A stretch of DNA of 61,544 nt, the filler included, from Asterionella formosa (Eukaryota), in NCBI GenBank assembly GCA_002256025.1. It is 5 parts of 5 records of this genome, joined end to end, with 100 filler letters (N's around TTAATTAATTAA, not from the genome) between each part and the next. Parts side by side here need not be neighbours in the genome. Positions count along the whole stretch, not along the records: positions 12,349 to 24,596 come from NKIB01007691.1; 4 more parts are not named here. The stretch is one strand, 5' to 3'. Shown one piece after another: positions 12,249-49,334 of the stretch (position 1 is the first letter of the stretch; each line of letters opens with the position of its first letter). Below the pieces are notes generated by a model. It was not told the origin of the DNA and searched no databases. It saw only the letters and a program-made list of their open reading frames with translations. Position numbers and translations under genes: made by a program.

Positions 12249-12348
12249 NNNNNNNNNNNNNNNNNNNNNNNNNNNNNNNNNNNNNNNNNNNNTTAATTAA
12301 TTAANNNNNNNNNNNNNNNNNNNNNNNNNNNNNNNNNNNNNNNNNNNN
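12249..12348. other. Artificial scaffold-joining spacer (N44-TTAATTAATTAA-N44)
   Basis: Exactly 100 nt with a six-frame stop linker; the same design recurs four times. Confidence 0.95.
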
Positions 12349-13721
12349 CCTTTCAATTCGTTGAGGCTGATTGTTGTCATGCCCTCGACGACTGTAACAA
12401 CCTCGCTGTACTCCACTGGAAGCTTGTCGATTACGTTCGCAATCACTTCCATTTCTTTCTTCTCAAATGACGGGTCGATCGCCATCATCTTGCTTTGTAT
12501 TAGATCGAGCTCGATGAACCATTCGTCTGGATCAGAGGAGCTATCGTTCAGCTTGCATTTGTTGAAATCGCTTGCCAGCTGGATCAGGTCCGACACAGAA
12601 CGTTTTCGTTTTGGCTTGGTTTACGAGTCCGAAGGCGATTCCGGTGCAGCTCATGATGAGCAACTGGTACGCCTTGTCGTTGGCCTCGTAGATAGCCCTG
12701 ACTCCTTTGTCTGTCTCCAATTCGTACTCTTCGTCAGAACACGGGTTATGGTTCTTGGAGTACATCGTTCGGAATCCTCTTGCCTTCGCCAGAGCGAGCG
12801 TTTTAACGCTCCACTGGTACCAGTTCGTTTCGTTGCCATCAAACTTGATGAGCCTCATGCTCTCTTCAGACATTTCTGTAGACATGTTAAAACACTTAAG
12901 TCCGTTTATAAACGTGTTAAAGCATTACCTTTTGTATAGATCTATATCGTTAGACAAAGAAGACTATAGATAGAGACGTTCGTTTCTCTTTCCGTTTCTA
13001 TGTTCTTATTGTGAGTTTACTAATCTAGTTTAGGTTGTTCTGTTTGAACAAAACAAACGAACTATTCTCCAAATGCTGTTTGCATTTCTAGGAACATACA
13101 ATCATGGATAGACCCATGTCTATCTCACACTTACTGATCATAGGTATTTAACCATGATCATTCATTTCAAACTATCGGTCTTCCCAAATAGCTTATGTTG
13201 TCCGGCTCATTATAGTCGGAGTAGCAAAGTATAATGTGTGGTTGATGAGAGCTTGGTACATCAAAGTGGACTCATTCGAATCGTTTGACTCGTTTTACTC
13301 CGAGTCCTAACTACGTAGATGAGCTCACTTTAACATACCGGTACTGGAACCATTGAAAAACTGCTGTGACGAGTTATCTGTTCGGTTGATTAGTTCGACT
13401 AAACCATTCCATCCTTGTAGTCAAGACCCAACTATTATGTCTTAGCACCAGTTAGGCACAGATAAGACTGGTCATGAAATGACTATCACTCCCATACATT
13501 TCCTTTCATTCACACATTCACCAGTGTGAATTCCCTTGCTTGAAGTGGTTCATTTAGGTTGTGATCTCGTTCAACCACATTGGATATGGAGAGCTACATT
13601 CCGGTTGCATAGACTCTACTCTCCCAATTCAAGTTGCAAGTACTACTCTACTCTGTTTCTACCATTTCAGAGTCCTTTACAACAAGGTTCCCCCTTTTGT
13701 CTCAACTTAGTTTAAATATCA
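12349..13721 (-). mobile_element. 5' part of a Ty1/Copia (CoDi-like) LTR retrotransposon: disrupted gag plus 5' UTR/LTR region, truncated by scaffold end
   Basis: gag-like peptides IKFDGNETNWYQWSVKTLALAKARG...AYQLLIMSC..IAFGLV (12885-12600) and, after a frameshift, FNKCKLNDSSSDPDEWFIELD...VIDKLPVEYSEVV. Candidate LTR start TGATATTT (minus strand) near 13721; LTR/PBS boundary not resolved. Confidence 0.75.
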
Positions 13722-14090
13722 TCACAGATTACCGGTAACCCCATTTGGTTTTCGCAAAAAAAATTAAGAATTTTCGCATCCAGATTTAATGTGAGAAGCT
13801 ATATATATCACAATTACACCCAAATCTAATACTGGGATGCATATTGTGAGCTAAAACTTGTATACCAGCAAGTTGCAGTAATTTTGCTTATTTGTGTACT
13901 CATTCACAAAAACAACAAATATTCCCTGACTCAGCAGCCATTGAGAAATCAAAGTATCAAACTTCTAACAGCTTGCGCCTGCAGGCCATATAAAGGACAA
14001 CAACTGGACAAAATTCGATAAATTCAGATAATTCGGGACAAATCATGTTCTGACAAATTGTAATTTTGGGTTGAATTATTTAGGGACTAT

Positions 14091-14655
14091 GTTAGTTTCA
14101 GCAAATTGACTCTTCTTTAAGCAAAATTTTGCTTAAACTAAACAAACCTACCAGTACCTGTTCTTCCTTAGTAATTCATTTGAACATGCTGCCGACGTCA
14201 TCACTGAAGGAAATTGAGTTACCAGGTACCACTGGTACCCTGGTACCAGGACACTCCTGTTGGCACACCATGCCACAGCTTGCCAAGTAGAATCAACCCT
14301 CTATTGCCCTGGTCATTGTTGTGTTTTTCCTGTTTTGAAGATATCATTGAAGGTCAAGGCGCTGAGATACTAACCCTTCTAGGAGGACATGATAATTTGC
14401 TGGTAATGGGTCACAGCAGCACTTTAATTTTTATAATAATTATACATACTACCATTATGATCACAGATTACCGGTACTCCATTTGGTTTTCGCGATGTTA
14501 GTTTAAGCAAATTGACACTACTTTAAGCAAAATTCGCTAAAAAAACAAAAATACCGGTACCCGTTATTCCTTAATTCATTTGAACATGCTGTCTACGTCA
14601 TTACGGAAACAAATTGTGTTACCAGGTACCACTGGTACCCTGGTACCATGACATA
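14091..14655 (+). repeat. Diverged direct repeat of about 160 bp (14091-14253 vs 14498-14655); also 13722-13755 matches 14461-14493
   Basis: Both copies read gttagttt(c/a)agcaaattgac...aattcatttgaacatgctg...ttaccaggtaccactggtaccctggtacca. Confidence 0.85.
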
Positions 14656-17600
14656 CGGAAAACGTGCTTGTACACATTGAAGTGAATTTTAGACACACGT
14701 TTCAACATTCGCCGCCAAAACTAATTATGTTAACGTCCTTTGGGATGGGCTGGCGGGGTAAAACGCATGCACACCGGCCTTCCCATCGAGGAAACTTTTA
14801 ACTTAAGGTTGCTGCATTTGAACCCCTAGCTCGAGGTAGGGTTATTAAAATAAAATTGAGTCAGACTAATCAAACACATACTTTCCAAATATAAATTAAA
14901 TATGTGTAACGCTCAATGGAGCTTTCACCAATAGACACCCTTTCCATATGTTAAAATACAGTCTTCGGAAAAAGTAGGGGTGTTGGTCCACTCAATACAT
15001 CGTCAGTATATCATAGGATCTGGTCAGAAACTGCAGAAAGGAATTTCGGTTTTTTAACTATGCTAAAAAGACTCGAAAATTCGGGGGAAATCTGTTTAAT
15101 TGGCATAGAAAAAAAGCGAAGTTCCTTTCCACAGTGTCTCACCAGAAGTCATATACTGATGCTATTTGAAAGTTACCTATGTATCTAAATCGCTGTCAGA
15201 CCCAGCCAACGTTTAGTTATCGTCGTCCAAAAACTCGACAAAATCGGCCTTTTCTACGGCCGTCAAAATATCGGAATCAGAATTATTAAGTGCCGAAACG
15301 TCATCATCGGAGTGGTAGTCGTGTGCCGGAATTTTAGTCCTAAAAGTGGTCGATCGGAGTATAGATTGTAGTACTGGGATATGCACAGCAAGCGATGTAG
15401 AATCTAAATATATGAAGTGATTTGAATATGTCTAACGGATTCAATGCATAACATATGAAATCGTTAATCGGAGTATAGAGTGTCCATGCATATATGTTGA
15501 TCGTATTTTTAGGGTATATATACATACAGCGACTCAGAGTGTTTATATATATATATATATTTAGCGGTCTCGACAAGGAATCTATGTACGTATTCGCAAA
15601 TTTCCACTGATTTAAATATTTCAAATGGAATCAAGTCATTCAAAAATAGCTAATTAAATTCTTAAATTTAGTTAATTTTTATAACAATTGTGGACTCAAT
15701 CGAAAAGTACTCTGAGTAAGGTGACTTGGTGGTGGAAACAACGATATGACGATGACGATCACATGATACAACTGTTCTAAACAGATAAAAAGTGAATTAT
15801 AAGTCAATTTTTGTTTTGGGCCTGATCTCTTGTAGACAATGGAGCATTGTACGTCTGCAAATAAAAAGTATCGTGCATATAGGATCAAGGGTATGGTACG
15901 CTAAGTGGCACAGGATTTTCGTATGTATGACAATTTTTGGATCAAAACTATGATCAAGGTATCCTATAACTATGATGATTTATTAATATTCTACCAACCT
16001 TGAATTATGACGAGAATGAGAAATTTATGATCACACAATGTATATCAACTGATCAACAACATTTCTCATCAATATCATAAACCTTCTCAAATTAATTTCA
16101 ATTCTCGTGATCGCCAGATGTAAATTATTACTACAATGCATCCTAAAATCAGCTCAACTCTTTGCTATCATGTGAATTGTTTCATCGTAAATCTATCTTA
16201 AACATGATCATACTTCTAATCACAAGCATTGTTCAAAATGGATTGGAATGGATTGAAATTGAATTAAAAAATTTAACAATGATATTTCTGTTTTGACAGC
16301 TACCCGAGGAATGTTTCTCTCCTCTCCACTCGTCTCAATGTATATTCCTGTCTCGCCCATTTCTTCCTCTTTTCTGAATCTTGTGCCAAGCAATACCTTA
16401 CTAATGTTGCTTCTCTCTCCATGCTGTTAGTGTCACTCTGAACTCGCCGACTATTCCGTTGTTTGATCGGTTTTATTGTCCTATGTAGTTACAGTGACAA
16501 TGAGAAGGAATGACTTGTTAGCTAGTCATTTTACACTGACACAACATCACGCCATTCCATCGTATCCACTTGCTTGCTTCACTTACCGCAAGTCAAAGGA
16601 AGCGATGCATAAGTCTGTAATAGTAAATTGTCAGTAAATTCTTGAATAAGTAAGTTTGAGGTTTCCAATGTTGTCGAATAAAACTTACTGATTCATTTTC
16701 GTAAGCTTAACTTTGAGAGAAGGTAAACATGGCGTGTCCGTCAGTTATGTTCCATTAGAATTGAATAGGTCCAATGACAAGAGCACTTACCAATTTTTTT
16801 TGTTTTACATTGGTGCTCCCCAACAAGCGAAACGAGCTGTTGAATCAACTGAGAAAAAAGGAAATGTGCGTTTTGCTTACAATTTGTTGTTGTCCTGCCT
16901 CCCAGTGATTGTCATCCAAGTACCACATTGATGGCTTCATTACTATGAAAAACATGAGAGGGATGAAAGAATCATTGGGTTGAATGCAGAAAGAATACAT
17001 TTTTGCATAAAAGTGTCGGAAAATGCATAAACCGTCAGTCAGGGGAGTTCGTGATCATTTCCGCGATGCGAAATTTTGATTCGCGTAAAGAACAAGCAGA
17101 CTATTGTTGAATGGCTGAAAGTATGTCTATAGTAAGCTGTCAAATGACCTTATCAAGATTCCATAGAAATATGTACCACGACAATTAGTGCCTACACGAA
17201 ACTCACTACAAAATTGAAGTAGAGGAATTTGTTGCATCTTGAAATGATGTACCTTCTCCAAGAATACTGTCGCTCAGGTTTTCTCATCGATTTCTACAAA
17301 ACGTAGGAAGCCTTATCTAGTCAAAGTTATCAAGCTAATCACCGCGGACTCAACACTGTCGCTACTTTAGTCATATCTTTAAAACTGAGCAAATGACGAC
17401 TGCCGATTTCAAATTTTTGTTGTCAATACTAGGGCAAAAAATTTTTGTATTGAACGATAATCTCGTCTATGTTAGTCTGTATACACGTGCGAAATAGGAA
17501 TTGTTCATTGTCAATATTCGTGAAGATATTCAACTCCATAATTTCGTCATGGTCAAGATGGAGTTGCTGTCTCATTGACCCCATACCACAGGCAGCTGTA

Positions 17601-17874
17601 CAAACACACATGGAAGTACTGCCTGATGGTATCTGGTACCCAGTATTAAGCATGCCAAGCATATTCATTATGCATGCCAAGCATATTTAATATACATCAC
17701 TATATACATATGTTGTGGTACCAGCAGTTGGAATTAACATGTAATCCTGTAGGTCTGTCATTACTAGCTACTTGGCAGTAAAAGTCCACATCATATATCA
17801 TATTGGCATTATACTTGGAATTGTTGTGTGTTTCCATGAATTACTTTTGTCAAAAGTCGCTCCACAAATACGAA

Positions 17875-19380
17875 ATGTCTAGTTCTTCCAACTCATCTCA
17901 CAATTAATCCTCCTCTGAGGAGGGTGATAGCATCTTGCAGAGTTCAGGAGATAGTTCGTCAGATGATAGTGCTTCCTCTTCTCGGAAAAAGGGGTAGATC
18001 CCATTAGCTTTTCCATCCTGCCATTGTCACCTGCAGGCGACACTCCAGCACGCACTGACAATTTTCCTCTTCCCCATGGCGACACTCCTTGGTGCTGGGA
18101 ACCGGACTCACCAGACTTTATCATATAGACAATGACTGATTATACTTTAGCTTGTCGCAAGGCTGTCAAGAAGATTTGGCCAAATGCCGAATTTACATTT
18201 GGTATGTGCTCTTATCATGCCTGGAATGCATGAGTAAAGAAGCATAGAGGAAAGTTCAAGAAATACAAAAAAAACAAAAAGAGAATGGGTGAAGACTTCG
18301 AGGCATATGAAAGAAGTCCCTGGATACAGCTAGTCCCAATCCTCCGCGATTTGATGATTTTCAAGTGGATCAACACATACAAGGAAAAGAAAGTTGCAAC
18401 TGCATGGTTGAAACAATGGGGTCCCACCATTCACACCAGAATTGAATTGAACCGTTCCAATCTACTTCGTGGTGGTTTGCCTGCACACAACAACACTTCA
18501 GAGGGCATCAACAGTGGTGATAAATCATTCTTTGACCACAGGAAGCCTTTAACAGCTAACTTCATTCATGACATGTCTTACATGTTAGAAGATCATTCCA
18601 AAGGGGATCTATCATTTTGCTCCACTTTACACTCATCGGTACACTCGATAAATTTCTACAAGTCTATTTATAAGCTTCTTGAGAAAAGCCAAAATGGGGA
18701 AGCTACATTTCTCACAGTGACATTTGATTTCAAGTGTGATTCAATTAGAATCGGAGGGGGTTCATTGTTAATTACGACATCGTCATTTGTGGACCTAAAT
18801 ATTATGTCCTCTATGCAAACAATGCAGTCCCAGAATACTGCAGCTGCATTGTCACAGCACAGTCAACTATCCCAATCTCGAAAGAGATATCTTTATATCG
18901 GGAACACAGAATCAGTTACTGCACTAACGGTTGTGCAATTGATAAAGAAGAACAAAATTCATGATGAATACAAGTGCCTTCTCCGAAATCCTGAACAGTA
19001 TTCTGCTAACCACACATTTGATGATGTCCTTTCCCTCACCCGCAGGTTTCACCTTATTGAACCTATTGTTTCCAAGAGTGAAAACGATGATGTTGCTCTA
19101 ACTAACTTTTTAGTAATTTTGGGAGCGTGTGGATTGGAACCCATTTCGATTAATAGCTTGAAAGCAATGGGCAATGAAGGCCTCGTATCTTGCCATTGTC
19201 AGTCACGCGTATTTAGCAAACGCGTGGTGTAAACATGCATGTGCTTTTGCATTTGACTGTGGAATTATTTCTACCTTTCCAAAGACAATGCATCCAAAGC
19301 CTAGTATTAAGAATAAAGGTTCTGGATGAATCAAAAATGCGATATGTGGAGGTAACTTAGATATTAAAGAATGATAACGT
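17875..19380 (+). pseudogene. MULE/Mutator-like transposase, C-terminal half (second D, CxxH, E, SWIM), degenerate
   Basis: In frame from 18132: MTDYTLACRKAVKKIWP...GMCSYHAW, then a stop, then the 18285 ORF with HNNTSEGIN. SWIM CHC...(frameshift)...WCKH at about 19190-19240. Ser/acidic leader from ATG 17875. Confidence 0.7.
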
Positions 19381-19456
19381 GGAGGTTACTTAGATATTAA
19401 AGGATGATAAATTTAGAAAAGCACTGGTAGTAGTGATGATATAAAAGTTATCATTA

Positions 19457-20678
19457 TTAGAAAGGAATATCATTAGTTTTCCTATACCTAACAAGCTCTT
19501 CCAAGGCAGACTTAATCGACGCGAATATGAATCTTTGTGCTTTGTGGTGTTCATGGCTTATCACTCCATATGCAATTGTTTTTGTTTGTTGAGCCAAGTT
19601 GGTTGTAATAACTGGAAAAACGCCGTTTCCTTCTTGTGTCAGTCTGTAAGATGCATCAGCAGCAAAGAAGATTGGATCGCCCCAGAATTGCTGTCTGCAC
19701 GCATTCAGCAACAAATTCTCGGTTGTTAGTACAGCTACCAAAGAGTCGTCTTCTGGTCGACAGTCTATGCCAAGTAGGTACATCGAATGTTGCATGAAAT
19801 TAAAGATATTCTCCTTCTTATATGATTCAAGGACAGCAGCGATTCCTCCCCATTTTTTGTCTTGACCATTTATTAGCCCAACCGATTTATTGCATAAGCG
19901 AGTGAGTTGTCGTTTCATGCACTTTTTCAATTATTCATCAACAGGAATTCCTTTGCCCTAGCCTCAGCAATGTAACGTGCTGGTTTCATGTTCAATTTAT
20001 TCGTGGAAGTAATTAACACAGACTGATAGTATTTGTGAATACGTTTTCTTATGCCATCTTTGACAACATTATGTTGTGTGTGTTTTAAGTCACCAATCTC
20101 AATTGTGGTCAAATTTGTTTTGGTATTGAATAATTCCCGAATTACAAAGGGACATTTACAGGAATGGAAAAATGTGCATCTTTTCTTTGTAACTCTAATG
20201 CCATCAGCTCTAAGGTATGGATGATCTTTTGATAACCACATCAGACTCCCGCCACCTCCAAAATTCCGTTTTTCCAAATCGCAAAGAATACCTTCAACCT
20301 CCCCAATCTTGACATCCATAGCAAAATAATTATTCACCCACACCTCGACTTTTTTCATTTGGTGGAGTGACAAGAACACCGTCATCAAGTGCTAAAAGAA
20401 CCTCGCTTTCCAAGATACCAGGCTCTTGCTTCTGTGACAGTTCCCATTAAACCTTCGATTTCTTCGATATCACAGTTGTTGAAGTCATCCTTGTTACCCT
20501 CTTCAAATTTAGGCTGTTTTTCGATACCAGAACTGTCAGTACTATCACTGTCGCTATGACTGTTACTGTGACTGTGACTGTCATCTTCGTCAGCCACTTC
20601 TTCGCTTTCATCTGAGATATCTTCCATCCCAGTGGTTTTCAAACCACCGGGTTGGGATGTAAACATTTGTCTCAACAT
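19457..20678 (-). pseudogene. MULE/Mutator-like transposase, N-terminal half (acidic leader, Cys/His DNA-binding domain, first catalytic D), degenerate
   Basis: Three frame-shifted ORFs: acidic leader; RCTFFHSCKCPF...KHTQH; LTTENLL...FAADASYRL...FPVITT...TIAYGVISHE. Ends KTNDIPF-stop. Confidence 0.7.
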
Positions 20679-21129
20679 GGAGGAGCGTCTATAATTTAAA
20701 TTAATATATAGTTTTCTCCTCTATATCAACCCAAAAATTCCTTGCTTGGCGGTATATCAATGTGGGTACCGGTACATCACAAGTAAAATAATTCATACAG
20801 TAACACGCCTTCTTTTTTTTGCTATTGTTTTATGTCGCTGCATGCATCTAAGCCGCGTATTAGTGGTAGAAAATGATCTTTAGCATTTCCACGTAATGAA
20901 CCCACAACAATCAATCTCAACTTGGGTACCGGTATCGAAACCCATAACAGGACATCCTTTGTGCTGTTTGAACATACCTACAGTCATGGCGACTGATGGA
21001 GTCGCTTTGTACGAAAACGAACGTCATAGACTGGTGTCGTTGTTCAAATCGTTTTTACGTACCGGTACTGCGTAAAAACGGCATGTGCTCAAATTTTCGG
21101 CTAGTTTGAGCGGCGTCGCGGCGAAAATT

Positions 21130-21300
21130 GATGTACCAAAGAATTCAATTGATGTTGTCGGCGCCAAGGCAATTGTAGAGGCTGTCAAGGTCAATATTGA
21201 ATTGACTACAGTTGGTTTCGATTTTAATTCTATTGGTCTTGATGGCGCTGAGACCATCAACACAGGTCTTCAAGGTCGATACTCAGCAGAAAGGAGTTGA
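21130..21300 (+). pseudogene. Fragment of an RNI/NLRC3-like leucine-rich-repeat gene
   Basis: NSIDVVGAKAIVEAVKVNIELTTVGFDFNSIGLDGAETI fits the 28-aa LRR consensus NxIGxxGAxAIAxALxxNxxLTxL. Confidence 0.55.
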
Positions 21301-22004
21301 TTTCGAGTAATAATAATCATGTAGAAATATTGGGTTGCCTACTACTAGTAGTAGCTAGTAGCTTGTAGTTAGCTAGGACTAGTAGTACAGTTACCTAGCT
21401 AGTACCAGTAGTAACCTACATTACATGAAAACTGGGATGAGTGAGCTTTTTACCGGAAAAGCGTGAGTTCTTTATATGATGTGTACAACCGTAACACTTT
21501 GATCTCAGATGCATGACATTAGATACCACAAATATCCTTACTATTTCACTAAGTAAAATGCGTGTTGTGAATGAATTATCCTCAAGAGCAGGATCTTAGT
21601 TGAACTTTCAAATGAATTATTTGAAACATCAACTAATTCAGTCTCACGTTCAAAATTCATTATGAAAACTTTACATGAAACATTTAAAATTTCACATGAA
21701 ACCATTAAAAGTAATCTTTTTTACGTGAAGACTGGCATTGATGCATGTGAAGTACCACATAATTAACACTCCTCATATGCAGACGAAATTTCGAAAAGTG
21801 GCGTATTTCACGGCTGAGATGCAGGTGCCTCTGTGTTACTCCCAATAGTATGATTGTAGGAGGCATCATTTTTAGTATCCCAACAACGAAAAGATGCATT
21901 TCCATTGTTATTCAAATATGAAAATTTAACACGATTCGTACACCGGTAATGGTAGTTGGTCTCTTCCTCCTGTGTACAAAGTAGGTTACTTGACGTCAAC
22001 ATGG

Positions 22005-22153
22005 TGAAGTTAGCAGTTAGTGACTGCATGTCAGTACCGGTAGTCAGCAAATGAAGTCAGCAGTCAGCGAATTTATCAAATTTTCAGCACATTAAGTCAG
22101 CAGTTAGCAAAAAGAAGTCCACAGTCAGCAAGTTGAAGTTGGTAGTCAGCGAT
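22005..22153 (+). repeat. Cluster of short GTCAGCA/GTTAGCA motifs
   Basis: About 10 irregularly spaced copies of gt(c/t)agc in about 150 bp. Confidence 0.7.
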
Positions 22154-22910
22154 TCTGCTGTGAAAGGGGGCAGCGCTTTTCCATTTGAAACTTTATAATG
22201 GTTACAGGTAATATAAATACATGGAAATACTGTGAGATTTTTCATCATTTCGGAATTGGTGAGCCGGTCAGACTTCCAATGAAGTGGGTTGAAACCGCTA
22301 TGTGGAGTTTTTAGCATAAAGTGTGCCCAATTTTCTGATTACTGGACCTTCCAGGGTATATGCCAGTATATTAGTACACGTATGCAACATACCAGCATAC
22401 TGACTTGAAGTTGAGCAGAATAACGTTGTCATAATTGGGTTAGTGCTTGATACATTCTAAGTACCAGTAGTCAACACGGAATCCTACCATTTCTTTGTGT
22501 AGGTAACCACTTTGGTAAAAGTTACATAAACCACGTCGTAATCATGCATTTAGGTAAAACATATTTGGATGCATTTAGGCACAGAATCTCCTACCAGGTA
22601 CCAGTAATGCAAAGAACAACGCGTTTGAGTTGGGATTTTCACTCCCATTAGCATCGCATTTTAGGGTTACAGAAACCAAAACACTGTGTGGTTGGCATTT
22701 TTGTCCATGGTTAGCAGTGGCCTTCAGCCTTAAGTACCAAATGCTTACCAGTATTCCCTCAAATCGTAAGGAGCACAAGCCAAGCCTCCATGGAAGCGTG
22801 CCAGCACTTGGATAACGCACTCTTTCTATATATATCAAGTTCTGGATAATTAGCTGATAATCAACATTATTGCTCTTCACAATTTCAAGCACAATTTCCT
22901 TATGTCCCAG

Positions 22911-23015
22911 GTACCGGACACTCCTTTCGGCACATGCCAAGGCTTGCCAAGTAGAATCAACCCTTTATTGCCCTGGTCATTGTTGTGTTTGCTTAACGTT
23001 TCCCTGTTTTGAAGA
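22911..23015 (+). repeat. Dispersed direct repeat, second copy (first copy at about 14243-14341)
   Basis: Shared ggacactcct...gcttgccaagtagaatcaaccct(c/t)tattgccctggtcattgttgtgttt...cctgttttgaaga. Confidence 0.85.
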
Positions 23016-23586
23016 ATAAAATTAGCATAACCTATTATACTACAAGTGGTTTTCATACCATCAATGACTTTATAGAGTGAATTGATGACGTCTTCTATAT
23101 ATTTTGAATGCCTGTCCTGCGTTACGTTATCACAACTAGCAGATCTACACGTCTTCGTAGTTGTGGATTTGGTTTTGTAAGTAATAGGCACAACTGAGCT
23201 AATCAAAACTGACAAAATGTTGTGTTACTTACCATTTAGATCCAATCAAGTTTATGCATTAGGTGTTGCAATGAACAAAGATATCAGGTTGAACTCATCT
23301 TAGTTGGGCATCGTTGGTAATGATAAAACTGTAAAAAATACATGAATTGTCAAGAGATGATTCTTATCCCCATCTTAGTTCAGAGGGGCATCAATATAAT
23401 AATAATATAACTGTGGTCATTGTTATTAATCGTGATAAATATACATATAATTGAAGAGCTATCCTCTGCTCGAATCTAGAATAGAAGCTGCGATTCTGCC
23501 CACATTGCAGAAACCACAGATCGAAAGTTGATGTCGTAATCAAATCAACTGTCAGAAATGCATCCGAGATTCATGGCTTTACTTTT

Positions 23587-24596
23587 TCACTCTTCAACGG
23601 CGACAGCCTCATCCACTTTTTCAACATCAACCTCCTCGGCAGCAGCAACTCGCTCCTCCGAGGTGCCAATATAAACCTCATCAGGTTGGTACCCAGCGAT
23701 TTGCTTGTGGACCAAAGCTAATAACCAAGCACCAGAGCACAGACCAGTGGCTTCAAGGAGAAGGCACAATCTAATAATCAGGTATATGAGAGGATTGGAA
23801 AGGAAGGCAAGTGGAAATGAAGATGCAATAATACGCCATGCCAAAGACCCAACAATGGTCGTGATAATGGCTCCCATGAGGCCAGTGTTGAAAAAGTTCT
23901 GGAGCCCATCAGATACGCCAAAAATGTTGTTCTCGCCAGTTGTGTAGTCAAGAGACGTGATGCGCGCAACAACGAACATGCAAACAGTGACACAGATTTG
24001 GCGACCAACCAAGAAAGCTTGCAAGTTTTGCCCAGTGAAAGTCAACTCGCAACTCTTGTGGGCCATGGTGTGCTTCTTCAGTTCTTCCTCGGGCATGTTG
24101 ATAACGGCGAAAAGGGCAATTTGCATACCCTCCATCATACCGACAAAGCCCATGAGGACAAACAAGAGGATCACGGAGACATATGGTGGGATTGCTCCCC
24201 ACATCTTTGTTTTTCCAGCAAACAAGGCTGTCAAGGTGACAGCAAATGCAAATCCAAGGACTGTAACAGACAACACGACACGGGCCCAAAAGAAAACATT
24301 CTGGCCAGCATTACGAGAGGGCTCCTTCGAGTCGATAGGAGTCTTGGTGATCTTGGAGAAGAAGATTTGAACAAGATATACCGAATGCAGAAGGCCAGAG
24401 AATTCAATTCCAAGGGACACATAAGTAGTGAAGAGCATGAAGTATGAATTGATAAAATCAAGCAAACAATTGGCGGCGTTGATCTGAGCAGTGAGCTGTC
24501 CAATCATAATGGTAGACAAAATCATTGCAATGCCGTTCGTAAGGAATACGTCGTTCAATGTAGAGCTCAATCCAAGCACAGTTGCGTCGGCAATGG
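23587..24596 (-). CDS. SIT: Silicon (silicic acid) transporter, 5'-truncated by scaffold end
   Basis: GQLTAQINAANCLLDFIN, IEFSGLLHSVYL, MMEGMQIALFAV (EGXQ), FLVGRQICV (GRQ), GSLAWRIIASSFPLAFLSNP, DEVYIGT. Frame is open to the gap. Confidence 0.95.
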
Positions 24597-24696
24597 NNNN
24601 NNNNNNNNNNNNNNNNNNNNNNNNNNNNNNNNNNNNNNNNTTAATTAATTAANNNNNNNNNNNNNNNNNNNNNNNNNNNNNNNNNNNNNNNNNNNN
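24597..24696. other. Artificial scaffold-joining spacer
   Basis: 100 nt of N with TTAATTAATTAA at 24641-24652. Confidence 0.95.
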
Positions 24697-29946: not shown

Positions 29947-30382
29947 NNNNNNNNNNNNNNNNNNNNNNNNNNNNNNNNNNNNNNNNNNNNNNNNNNNNNN
30001 NNNNNNNNNNNNNNNNNNNNNNNNNNNNNNNNNNNNNNNNNNNNNNNNNNNNNNNNNNNNNNNNNNNNNNNNNNNNNNNNNNNNNNNNNNNNNNNNNNNN
30101 NNNNNNNNNNNNNNNNNNNNNNNNNNNNNNNNNNNNNNNNNNNNNNNNNNNNNNNNNNNNNNNNNNNNNNNNNNNNNNNNNNNNNNNNNNNNNNNNNNNN
30201 NNNNNNNNNNNNNNNNNNNNNNNNNNNNNNNNNNNNNNNNNNNNNNNNNNNNNNNNNNNNNNNNNNNNNNNNNNNNNNNNNNNNNNNNNNNNNNNNNNNN
30301 NNNNNNNNNNNNNNNNNNNNNNNNNNNNNNNNNNNNNNNNNNNNNNNNNNNNNNNNNNNNNNNNNNNNNNNNNNNNNNNNNN
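29947..30382. other. Intra-scaffold sequence gap
   Basis: Run of N without the linker. Confidence 0.95.
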
Positions 30383-32626: not shown

Positions 32627-33159
32627 NNNNNNNNNNNNNNNNNNNNNNNNNNNNNNNNNNNNNNNNNNNNNNNNNNNNNNNNNNNNNNNNNNNNNNNNNN
32701 NNNNNNNNNNNNNNNNNNNNNNNNNNNNNNNNNNNNNNNNNNNNNNNNNNNNNNNNNNNNNNNNNNNNNNNNNNNNNNNNNNNNNNNNNNNNNNNNNNNN
32801 NNNNNNNNNNNNNNNNNNNNNNNNNNNNNNNNNNNNNNNNNNNNNNNNNNNNNNNNNNNNNNNNNNNNNNNNNNNNNNNNNNNNNNNNNNNNNNNNNNNN
32901 NNNNNNNNNNNNNNNNNNNNNNNNNNNNNNNNNNNNNNNNNNNNNNNNNNNNNNNNNNNNNNNNNNNNNNNNNNNNNNNNNNNNNNNNNNNNNNNNNNNN
33001 NNNNNNNNNNNNNNNNNNNNNNNNNNNNNNNNNNNNNNNNNNNNNNNNNNNNNNNNNNNNNNNNNNNNNNNNNNNNNNNNNNNNNNNNNNNNNNNNNNNN
33101 NNNNNNNNNNNNNNNNNNNNNNNNNNNNNNNNNNNNNNNNNNNNNNNNNNNNNNNNNNG
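32627..33159. other. Intra-scaffold sequence gap
   Basis: Run of N flanked by GGTAC-rich sequence. Confidence 0.95.
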
Positions 33160-36919: not shown

Positions 36920-37019
36920 NNNNNNNNNNNNNNNNNNNNNNNNNNNNNNNNNNNNNNNNNNNNTTAATTAATTAANNNNNNNNNNNNNNNNNNNNNNNNN
37001 NNNNNNNNNNNNNNNNNNN
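36920..37019. other. Artificial scaffold-joining spacer
   Basis: 100 nt of N with TTAATTAATTAA at 36964-36975. Confidence 0.95.
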
Positions 37020-49234: not shown

Positions 49235-49334
49235 NNNNNNNNNNNNNNNNNNNNNNNNNNNNNNNNNNNNNNNNNNNNTTAATTAATTAANNNNNNNNNN
49301 NNNNNNNNNNNNNNNNNNNNNNNNNNNNNNNNNN
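49235..49334. other. Artificial scaffold-joining spacer
   Basis: 100 nt of N with TTAATTAATTAA at 49279-49290. Confidence 0.95.

Follow-up and report, generated by a model that had tools for sequence, protein, structure and literature searches.

We identified in Asterionella formosa a Mutator-type transposase that is divided between two convergent genes. Relatives share this split-gene architecture and its split point, and each half retains invariant catalytic residues. The copy described here is probably a dead member of a Mutator-superfamily (MULE/IS256-like) lineage in which an ancient inversion broke the transposase into two independently expressed genes. It lies in a window (the whole stretch of DNA analysed, 61,544 nt, assembly GCA_002256025.1) whose positions 12,349-24,596 come from NKIB01007691.1. 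The minus strand carries the N half (20678->19457) and the plus strand the C half (17875->19374), with the following features:

17875..18011, plus strand: C-half start ATG and Ser/acidic low-complexity leader (MSSSSNSS...), by frame reading
18012..19374, plus strand: conserved body of the C half (pseudogene), by motifs and the AlphaFold2 model of relative P0007
18138-18140, plus strand: codon of the second Asp (D2) in TMTDY, by motif
18207-18218, plus strand: CxxH in MCSYH (C 18207-18209, H 18216-18218), by motif
18501-18503, plus strand: Glu codon in HNNTSEGIN, by motif
19191-19236, plus strand: SWIM CxC...CxH (C 19191, C 19197, C 19228, H 19234), by motif across a frame change
19372-19374, plus strand: C-half stop TGA, by frame reading
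19375..19456, no strand: spacer of 82 nt between the convergent stops, measured stop to stop
19457..20678, minus strand: N-half gene (pseudogene), by frame reading, Pfam MULE and the AlphaFold2 model of relative P0001
19459-19457, minus strand: TAA closing the N half (KTNDIPF-TAA), by frame reading
19930-19457, minus strand: segment with the first Asp (D1), FFAADASYRL, D1 codon 19657-19655
20391-19927, minus strand: N-half Cys/His domain, by three-frame reading
20720-20385, minus strand: N-half acidic leader, by three-frame reading

The N half encodes, in order, an acidic leader, a WRKY/GCM1-like Cys2His2 domain, a predicted HTH-like three-helix domain and strands beta1-beta3 with helix alpha1 of an RNase H fold. 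One Met codon lies at 20678, and the Met at 20627 ('MEDISDESEE') aligns with the start of P0001. The C-half body carries the motif ...PARTDNFPLP..WCWEP ahead of the second Asp and a helical insertion domain between CxxH and the Glu motif. A 33-nt tandem duplication (19346-19377, 19379-19410) repeats the last C-half codons with their stop and overlaps the spacer. Two frame changes interrupt the N half (near 20388 and at 19930), and the C half contains in-frame stops at 17905, 17995, 18126 (Q in P0007), 18231 (W in P0007) and 19327 as well as frame changes near 18000 and near 19205. Three-frame reading confirmed both the split into two convergent halves and the decay by stops and frameshifts that an earlier sequence-only reading of this DNA had proposed. 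That reading placed the C-half start correctly and its end at 19380 instead of 19374, and its N-half Cys spacing of C-x4-C-x-C had to be corrected to C-x5-C-x-C, the conserved ligands of relatives being C-x7-C...H-x2-H.

The surroundings of the copy are gene-poor, AT-rich and repeat-rich. Self-BLAST and repeat searches recovered this one decayed copy of the split element in the window, and in both of its flanks found no terminal inverted repeats (TIRs) or target site duplications (TSDs); the best inverted repeat linking the flanks comprises 11 exact bases (E 0.13), and the copy is old. None of the 56 metagenome loci described below includes both flanks, and the loose-end letters of sequencing-run contigs, sought in the window as marks of the element ends, had no match there. 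Run contigs were placed on the window at 85% likeness, and their depth, starts and strands are uninformative. Contigs from RNA libraries (X17, X16) match both halves, with X17 examples at 18775-19374 and 19472-20104; as such libraries can contain DNA, this is only a hint of transcription of both halves. Positions 19375-19471 are devoid of run-contig cover, which carries no evidential weight.

The window layout is more than chance, because the same layout recurs in 14 unrelated metagenome loci. All five relatives recovered with the window N-half piece are proteins of 328-377 aa that end about 65 aa past ADASYRL. Among the 56 metagenome loci with an N half, its end is present in 51 and uncut by the contig end in 49, and in all 49 the stop falls within -1 to +3 codons of the profile end. 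This stop is TAG in 22 loci, TGA in 20 and TAA in 7, and follows a conserved ...R....(I/V) tail. Locus L054 was considered as a fused form and rejected: its N-half ORF continues for 60 codons to the contig end, and the extension, which has no similarity to the C half, is probably the start of an intron or a diverged tail. GT-AG introns occur at one conserved N-half position in two sequence groups, by which the split-element loci appear to be eukaryotic genomic DNA; an N-half alignment scan found no relatives in viral contigs among 112 pattern matches.

The C half is likewise a gene of its own. HMMER searches of 1.84 billion representatives gave 170 C-half matches, and the full-length relatives are separate proteins of 427-552 aa, each starting at its own Met with a variable leader, and match from about residue 100-200 on. 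The leaders measure 60-130 aa and are predicted to be disordered (pLDDT <50 for P0007 residues 1-99). In 14 of 56 loci, representing 10 of 39 groups (85% nt) with GC from 0.44 to 0.68, a C half follows the N half downstream in the opposite orientation; the colinear order, N then C, was found in 0 of 56. Stop-to-stop spacers in relatives span 39-821 nt, with 126 nt in four loci. Locus L012 is an exception, carrying both genes intact in tandem C-then-N order, not convergent, and in locus L018 an internal deletion has cost the C half its Glu region. Twenty loci extend at least 700 nt past the N-half stop, and 9 of them (6 groups) have no C half there. Identities of neighbouring halves co-vary (Mantel r 0.88, 2 of 5000 permutations as high), in a test built on rough segments and including some loci that are kin.

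The sequence-only reading had named a unique inversion, or a nesting of two truncated elements, as the event that would explain the window away. Such a local accident, or an assembly artefact, would fit a single decayed copy, and is contradicted by independent assemblies, in which 14 loci from 10 groups repeat both the layout and the split point; a lone contig of an independent DNA run (side 37, 85% likeness) also bridges the junction from 19369 to 19468, which is weak evidence in the same direction. We give this explanation next to no credence. The expectation that relatives keep the two-ORF layout and the split point was borne out by the position of the N-half stop, the separate C-half starts and the convergent loci.

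Catalytic residues are conserved in both sets of proteins. D1 (D278 in P0001) shows no variation across 27 N halves, and D2, CxxH and Glu (D132, C155, H158 and E253 in P0007) show none across 26 C halves, with spacings of 23 from D2 to C and 98 from C to E. The SWIM ligands C466, C468, C477 and H479 are kept in 90% or more of the 26 C halves, and all 5 close N halves share the zinc-finger ligands C102, C110, H134 and H137. Known domain models reach these proteins faintly. Pfam MULE matches the window N-half piece at E 0.0076 (profile positions 4-61 of 99), and MULE or ZSWIM1-3_RNaseH-like matches 12 of 23 N-half ORFs (E 0.003-0.08; MULE in 9 of 23), the MULE matches spanning only profile positions 1-60 of 99. 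MULE also matches 3 of 4 fused relatives (E 0.012-0.13) and 2 of 26 C halves. The Pfam SWIM family model matches 7 of 26 C halves at E <=0.1. No Pfam model exceeded its curated cut-off in scans of N halves, C halves and fused relatives, and no scan of the halves gave a Myb or Harbinger match. For the domains named in the earlier reading, MULE peaked at 18.3 bits against a cut-off of 27.6 and SWIM reached E 6.9e-4 at best in C halves. The lines of evidence for the Mutator superfamily are weak and agree with one another; the element is a variant of it rather than a standard member, as its transposase is not one polypeptide.

The N half is under purifying selection. We compared 29 N-half pairs (55-97% aa identity). 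For 10 of them dS could be estimated, giving dN/dS of 0.14-0.28 in 9 and 0.60 in one; in the remaining 19 pairs dS was saturated, with dN of 0.19-0.48. Selection of this strength and the conserved introns could also describe a domesticated pair, that is, host genes derived from a Mutator-like transposase that form a heteromeric nuclease or DNA-binding complex and are no longer mobile. The lack of a TIR or TSD at the window copy would agree with domestication, as would the occurrence of the pair across hosts of very different GC and the non-adjacent partner in 9 of the 20 loci with enough sequence. Host genes would not be expected, however, to appear as a copy full of stops and frame changes in a gene-poor, AT-rich, repeat-rich stretch, and 3975 contigs of one DNA run match this DNA at 85-100% likeness, consistent with the presence of many diverged copies. 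The deletion derivative L018 and the retention of every catalytic residue likewise speak against domestication, which we regard as unlikely.

AlphaFold2 models place the break inside the catalytic fold. The N-half model (P0001) ends in strands 274-277 (with D278), 289-296 and 302-310 and helix 315-339, and the C-half model (P0007) begins with strand 126-131 (with D132), helix 135-144, strand 149-154 and helix 156-166. The break is thus predicted to fall between alpha1 and beta4 of an RNase H-like fold, with beta1-beta3 and alpha1 confined to the N-half model and beta4 onward confined to the C-half model. Secondary-structure order in both models agrees with a D, D, CxxH, E core whose residues sit on two chains. 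Residues 50-138 of the N-half model align with AFT2 (VIA-align Z 6.1, rmsd 3.2, 75 aligned), and the model also aligns with WRKY33 (Z 5.1) and AtWRKY1 (Z 4.8) within a listed range of Z 6.1-4.1; at Z below 8, these matches lend moderate support to a WRKY/GCM1-type zinc finger. The RNase H part of the N half lies outside the reach of the structural matches listed. Sequence searches of the PDB with both profiles returned nothing meaningful, and Foldseek found nothing in the PDB at E <=0.001 for either half.

Modelled together with ESMFold2, the two halves form a complex with an ipSAE of 0.76, compared with 0.25 for the best control. Of 78 solved complexes 51 attain that mark, as do 2 of 108 mismatched pairs; in a eukaryotic calibration it is attained by 39 of 65 solved pairs without a like complex and 2 of 126 unrelated pairs. 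Runs share at least 84% of contacts, with a partner pLDDT of at least 77 and a C-half chain pLDDT of only 50-54. The predicted interface joins C-half residues 125-132, 155 and 244-252 to N-half residues 272-279. Solved structures include many RNase H-like transposase folds, and the high score may reflect this even where no solved relative exists by sequence. Of the two-component design put forward in the sequence-only reading, the two-gene layout stands as observed, and the putative assembly of the DDE site in trans is supported only by structure prediction.

Four relatives (P0118, P0156, P0157 and P0158; 782-865 aa, 38-68% mutual identity) are fused. P0118 matches both N parts and C parts of split loci in tblastn, its N part extending to residue 415 and its C part starting at 425, so that the parts abut within about 10 residues; the fused junction has no stop, second Met or leader and forms one ORF. 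The earlier claim that the halves are non-redundant and complementary holds on both counts, neither AlphaFold2 model having a full DDE and the halves matching consecutive parts of P0118. The nearest named ESM Atlas clusters of a fused relative are MULE/SWIM (0.95, 196 of 256 features). Relatives encoded as one continuous protein, which that reading had set against its own interpretation, therefore exist as these four distant forms, whereas the transposase is split in 49 of 49 N-half loci with a complete end. A protein search with alignment over the range of 897-2560 aa, which lies beyond the 782-865 aa of the fused forms, found no relatives. In the unrooted C-region tree the fused clade has an SH-aLRT of 100 and adjoins three forms called split by length only; the tree fits either splitting or re-fusion, and the fused state is putatively the ancestral one.

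The fused clade raises the possibility that the split copies are non-autonomous, their halves not complementing each other, and that any mobility stems from the one-piece transposase of the fused relatives, whose clade is near some split forms in the tree. Dead weight would not, however, hold D1, D2, CxxH and E invariant across 25-50% aa identity, nor keep the stop in one place in all 49 loci while dN/dS stays near 0.2, and fused forms are scarce (4, against 170 C-half matches and 56 N-half loci). We consider non-autonomy quite improbable. The close abutment of the parts in fused relatives also means that one inversion links both states, and the halves could conceivably be rejoined before translation by site-specific DNA inversion or RNA-level joining, the active protein being one chain. 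Against this, neither half is flanked by inverted repeats in the window, the N half ends in a conserved tail and a stop, the C half begins with a Met of its own and a variable disordered leader of 60-130 aa that is absent from fused forms, and both genes are intact in the C-then-N tandem of L012; rejoining is very improbable. The preferred reading remains that of two genes whose products act together.

Canonical MULE transposases (MURA, Jittery, Hop, Muta1) combine a WRKY/GCM1-type finger, an RNase H-like core (D...D...CxxH...E) and SWIM, and to our knowledge all known MULE transposases are one polypeptide. We likewise know of no DDE transposase, retroviral integrase or RAG1 whose RNase H-like catalytic fold is not on a single chain. 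The split element has the parts in the same order as canonical MULEs, with weak MULE or ZSWIM1-3_RNaseH-like Pfam matches at the first Asp, but differs in that its core is cut between alpha1 and beta4 and encoded by two genes, and in the long D1-D2 spacer of the lineage, which is found even in the fused relatives. In maize, mudrA and mudrB are transcribed towards each other. MuDR is a Mutator element with two genes, mudrA encoding the whole transposase and mudrB an unrelated helper, as outlined in PMC6446971. The second gene of the split element, in contrast, is the missing part of the catalytic core, and the alignment of both genes to consecutive parts of the one-piece P0118 argues against a MuDR-type helper arrangement.

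PIF/Harbinger elements are two-ORF transposons with the complete DDE core in one protein and DNA binding on the other, a Myb-like protein. Two element-encoded products are needed in both systems, but the split element places DNA binding and one Asp on one protein and the remaining two catalytic residues on the other, and neither ORF contains a complete core in the AlphaFold2 models, which differs from a PIF/Harbinger-type arrangement. In Tn7, TnsA and TnsB are two polypeptides, each with a full active site and each cutting a different strand; transposase activity likewise requires two polypeptides, but TnsA and TnsB are not halves of one fold. Among the matches listed, the papers on heteromeric transposases that identify a system in the abstract deal with Tn7-like elements.

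The top structural matches of the C half include a single transposase, ISCth4 (IS256 family, PDB 6xg8/6xgx), a bacterial, single-chain, copy-out/paste-in enzyme with D241, C262/H265, an insertion domain and E348 in the account given in PMC7780238. VIA-align superposes model residues 118-294 on chain residues 225-389 (Z 5.7, rmsd 4.9, 157 aligned), a Z tied with unrelated rows, and Foldseek gives a probability of 0.75 at E 1.3; the resemblance is a lead rather than proof. The C-half spacings resemble the D-C 21 and C-E 86 of ISCth4 derived from the residues listed there (D241, C262, E348; PMC7780238). In Phaeodactylum tricornutum, a mobile 3.7-kb two-ORF MULE has been seen to transpose and, as summarised in the preprint, consists of a MULE+SWIM ORF and a diatom-specific zinc-finger ORF read as a UBR-type E3 ligase (bioRxiv 10.1101/2023.01.02.522487). 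It resembles the split unit in size and in having two ORFs but, by that summary, holds MULE and SWIM in a single ORF; it may nevertheless be a member, its 'E3 ligase-like' ORF being the N half. No paper on a split DDE or MULE transposase was found among the matches listed in the literature searched, which covered few subscription journals and excluded Repbase. Within that literature, a split-gene catalytic centre is a design without earlier description for Mutator-like transposases.

In the proposed mechanism, an ancient inversion would have split the transposase gene into two, each expressed independently. The product of gene 1 (N half, ~330-380 aa) would open with a disordered acidic leader, bind DNA through a WRKY/GCM1-type zinc finger and an HTH-like domain, and close with the initial third of the RNase H-like core (beta1-beta3 and alpha1), which holds the first Asp. 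Gene 2 (C half, ~430-550 aa), mostly tail-to-tail with gene 1, would begin with its own Met and disordered leader and contribute beta4 with the second Asp, beta5, the CxxH helical insertion domain, Glu and the SWIM finger. The two polypeptides would associate through beta1-beta4 strand pairing and surrounding helices, and only the heteromer would possess a full DDE site together with the DNA-binding module and thereby be able to cut and paste the element. We see an even chance that this amounts to an obligate two-subunit DDE transposase in a widespread Mutator-like lineage of diatoms and other aquatic protists, the core forming only once the products of two convergent genes pair beta1 with beta4, so that transposition is gated by co-expression; antisense overlap of the 3' ends is perhaps a further gate.

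The split element represents a family that is widespread in diatom-like algae. With no Pfam model reaching its cut-off, both halves escape gene callers and domain libraries. The number of split elements in the genomes of diatoms and other protists is therefore probably underestimated, and the halves may carry labels of unrelated zinc-finger proteins in annotation. If the proposed assembly is true, this family would be evidence that an RNase H-like core divided between two genes, and kept so by purifying selection, can come together in trans; transposition in it would be under a built-in two-key control, and split, inducible transposase tools could take the pair as a natural template.

Both halves of the transposase were found in the window as the two convergent, complementary genes described by the sequence-only reading, with minor corrections to spacing and end points. 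The parts of this copy are as follows.

20720-20385, minus strand: acidic leader of the N half, with Mets at 20678 and 20627
20391-19927, minus strand: Cys/His domain of the N half, read in another frame
19930-19457, minus strand: FFAADASYRL segment of the N half, ending in KTNDIPF and then TAA
17875, plus strand: ATG, the C half's own start codon, opening its Ser/acidic leader
18138-18140, plus strand: codon of the second Asp of the C half, in TMTDY
18234-19232, plus strand: open stretch of 332 codons with HNNTSEGIN (Glu codon 18501-18503)
19372-19374, plus strand: stop of the C half, facing the N-half stop

The N half is spread over three minus-strand reading frames, and its Met at 20627 ('MED..') is the counterpart of the start of P0001, the relative used for N-half numbering. 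On the plus strand, the leader of the C half is followed by a PARTDNFPLP..WCWEP motif, TMTDY is followed by MCSYH, and a SWIM-like CxC...CxH lies near the end. The opposed stop codons are separated by 82 nt, and a 33-nt tandem duplication (19346-19410) has copied the last codons and stop of the C half into this spacer. Comparison with relatives by tblastn showed that the reading frame changes twice in each half and that the C half also has five in-frame stops, two of which stand in place of Q and W of P0007 (the C-half numbering reference); the same searches found no second copy of the element elsewhere in the window.

The surroundings of the copy (about 13-24 kb) have a GC content of 35-41%, with M13 peptidase and ABC1 kinase genes on one side and genes for a silicon transporter (23587-24648, minus strand, PF03842, E 3.5e-134, interrupted by the filler at 24597-24696), a 2-oxoacid dehydrogenase E2 and a GH3 hydrolase on the other. 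The presence of a silicon transporter is suggestive of a diatom-like nuclear genome. Contigs from public DNA runs match the stretch in large numbers (85-100% likeness) and far more densely on the flanks at 16.4-17.1 kb and 21.4-21.9 kb, which fits a repeat-rich region, summed contig depth not being equivalent to copy number. DNA- and RNA-library contigs are much more numerous at 16434-17084 and 21425-21858 than on the element; these two segments are probably different repeats of higher abundance on either side of the copy. Directly outside the element, a short ORF (21076-21300, plus strand) has, by eye, a leucine-rich-repeat-like pattern, and RNA-library contigs match 20919-21116. Pairs of 44-N blocks return at intervals of about 12.3 kb, at the filler positions 12249-12348, 24597-24696, 36920-37019 and 49235-49334. 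These blocks, and two further long runs of N at 29947-30382 and 32627-33158, have the appearance of masking or scaffolding, not of biology.

The 157-aa N-half piece of the window retrieved five proteins of 328-377 aa, all with the same end point as the window's N half, and a scan of metagenome contigs with the alignment of these five yielded 56 loci, whose six-frame ORFs were searched with purpose-built N-half and C-half HMMs. The N-half end is present in 51 loci, two of them cut by the contig end; in all 49 uncut loci a stop codon (TAG 22, TGA 20, TAA 7), preceded by a conserved ...R....(I/V) tail, lies at -1 to +3 codons from the profile end. The C-half piece had 170 matches in a HMMER search of 1.84 billion representative proteins, and the full-length ones (427-552 aa) have a Met start and a leader of variable sequence, acidic or rich in Ser, and align from about residue 100-200 onward. 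Because the N-half stop is constant and the C-half proteins have their own Met and leader, both halves are widespread as separate genes with one break point. That the split is a local accident of the window is ruled out by the N-half end in 49 of 49 loci together with the free-standing C-half proteins. Some variants were also seen: locus L043 (1213-2952, plus strand) encodes a ubiquitin C-terminal hydrolase domain (PF00443, E 2.2e-11) and the N half in one open frame, Cys-rich, zinc-finger-like stretches replace the acidic/Ser-rich leader in some C halves (L025:3127-3646, minus strand; proteins P0061, P0074, P0077 and P0093), and a long stretch of unrelated sequence is added at the N-terminus of P0153 (944 aa).

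The convergent layout likewise recurs outside the window, with an opposite-strand C half downstream of the N half in 14 of the 56 loci (L003, L006, L007, L008, L014, L018, L019, L020, L023, L025, L037, L042, L044 and L047), representing 10 of 39 sequence groups and a GC content of 0.44-0.68. Twenty loci extend at least 700 nt beyond the N stop; 11 have a convergent C half, and in the other nine (6 groups), most with almost no upstream sequence, tblastn with every C-type protein found no C half beyond the N stop. N-then-C order on one strand occurs in none of the 56 loci. Stop-to-stop spacers in relatives measure 39-821 nt (126 nt in four loci). Locus L012 (1-2824) has intact C and N ORFs in tandem on one strand, C first. 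In the tree, its C half groups as sister to the one from L025, a convergent locus (SH-aLRT 100); evidently the two genes can be rearranged yet stay open. The same C-first order is possible in L035 (weak match, iE 7e-3). The C-half ORF beside the N half in L018 (1468-2550, minus strand, 361 aa) has an internal deletion at profile 106-331, the catalytic Glu region, and may be a deletion derivative. The loci are eukaryotic genomic sequence, since GT-AG introns of about 100-140 nt occupy one conserved N-half position (profile about 300-305) in two sequence groups (L017 and L024-L027, e.g. L025:1152-1254; L046 and L049); the window copy is without this intron.

No variation occurs at D278 (P0001 numbering) or in the S.ENLLLNAYRQ motif across 27 N halves, nor at D132, C155, H158, N250, E253, N256 and K260 across 26 C halves, at least 90% of which have the four SWIM ligands. 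Among N-half pairs at 55-97% amino acid identity, dS could be estimated for ten, of which nine have a dN/dS of 0.14-0.28 and the tenth 0.60; dS is saturated in the remaining 19 pairs (dN 0.19-0.48) and in all three DNA pairs that made up the C-half test. In a set of 10 elements, the identities of neighbouring halves co-vary (Mantel r 0.88, 2 of 5000 permutations), which is minor support given that several of the loci are related to one another and segment boundaries were rough.

Confident AlphaFold2 models built on two alignments, with a mean pLDDT of 80.5 (N half) and 77.7 (C half), share the triad between the two chains, so that, as anticipated, neither half has a complete DDE of its own. 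The N-half model opens with a disordered leader; a beta-rich domain spans 50-138 and three helices span 148-208. Its last part has strands 274-277, leading to D278, 289-296 and 302-310 and a long helix (315-339) at the chain end. In the C-half model, 99 disordered residues precede strand 126-131, leading to D132, helix 135-144, strand 149-154 and helix 156-166, which carries C155 and H158 and precedes a helical domain; a short helix bearing E253, further helices and the SWIM region make up the remainder. In these models the break lies between alpha1 and beta4 of the RNase H-like core (beta1-beta2-beta3-alpha1 / beta4-alpha-beta5-alpha).

The complex of P0007 residues 95-522 and P0001 residues 195-343 was predicted with ESMFold2 without alignments, in three runs and with three controls. 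The ipSAE mark obtained, 0.76, is attained for 51 of 78 solved complexes versus 2 of 108 mismatched pairs and, among eukaryotes, for 39 of 65 solved pairs without a like complex versus 2 of 126 unrelated pairs. Contact agreement between runs was at least 84% and partner pLDDT at least 77, with a C-half chain pLDDT of only 50-54. The confident interface involves 125-132 (beta4, D132), 155 and 244-252 of the C half and 272-279 (beta1, D278) of the N half, and would resemble a re-formed catalytic core; it also places the N-half tail (333-343) against the C-half FPLP..WxW segment (105-121). Of the earlier proposal of a core formed in trans from two genes, the conserved architecture under selection stands, and assembly of the active site in trans is a plausible prediction from an ipSAE of 0.76 in the three runs versus 0.25 for the best control. 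Both halves belong to one fold, and the high score may instead reflect the model's familiarity with such folds.

Both parts occur in a single chain in P0118 (859 aa), whose N-terminus is also Cys-rich and zinc-finger-like, and a search with it retrieved three further fused proteins (862, 865 and 782 aa; 38-68% identity). Their N part extends to about 415 and their C part starts at about 425, with no stop, leader or second Met at the junction. In an unrooted tree of the C region the fused proteins are one clade (SH-aLRT 100), adjoining P0085 (99) and P0030/P0053 (95), which are classed as split solely by length and Met starts. With the root on the fused stem, a single origin of the split is possible; alternatively, the fused proteins may result from re-fusion. 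That canonical MULEs are one-piece favours the first of these readings.

No model reached the Pfam curated cut-off. MULE or ZSWIM1-3_RNaseH-like matches (E 0.003-0.08) were obtained for 12 of 23 N-half ORFs (MULE in 9), the MULE matches, like that of the window piece, being confined to profile positions 1-60 of 99, before the break; SWIM was matched by 7 of 26 C halves (best E 6.9e-4). In the ESM Atlas, P0118 adjoins MULE/SWIM clusters (0.95, 196 of 256 features) and the N half adjoins unnamed clusters and, with lower scores, MULE/FLYWCH/ZSWIM clusters. Structural likeness to WRKY/GCM1-type domains (AFT2 Z 6.1, WRKY33 Z 5.1, AtWRKY1 Z 4.8) covers N-half residues 50-138, and likeness to transposase HTH domains (IstA Z 5.2) covers residues 148-208. 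C-half residues 118-294 match ISCth4 (IS256 family) 225-389 (Z 5.7, rmsd 4.9, 157 aligned; Foldseek probability 0.75, E 1.3), a segment that, in the available text on ISCth4, includes D241, C262/H265, the insertion domain and E348 and excludes D175 (PMC7780238). The structure matches are weak, yet point in the same direction as the sequence evidence, and the element very probably represents a divergent Mutator-superfamily lineage.

Whereas the canonical MULE has a one-piece transposase, the core is here divided between two genes. A 2019 MULE survey, in the text available, catalogues additional ORFs (mudrB, MutB and unknown ORFs), gives diatom MULEs a single ORF with SWIM and contains no description of a split catalytic core (PMC6446971). 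Full-text literature searches, with most subscription journals and Repbase outside their scope, returned no DDE or MULE transposase that is split. According to a preprint, a MULE of 3.7 kb moved in cultured Phaeodactylum; it has a MULE+SWIM ORF and a diatom-specific zinc-finger ORF, the latter read as an E3 ligase (10.1101/2023.01.02.522487). Its size and two-ORF plan invite comparison with the split element. The split architecture is real, conserved and under selection, and transposon mobility and catalysis are putative.
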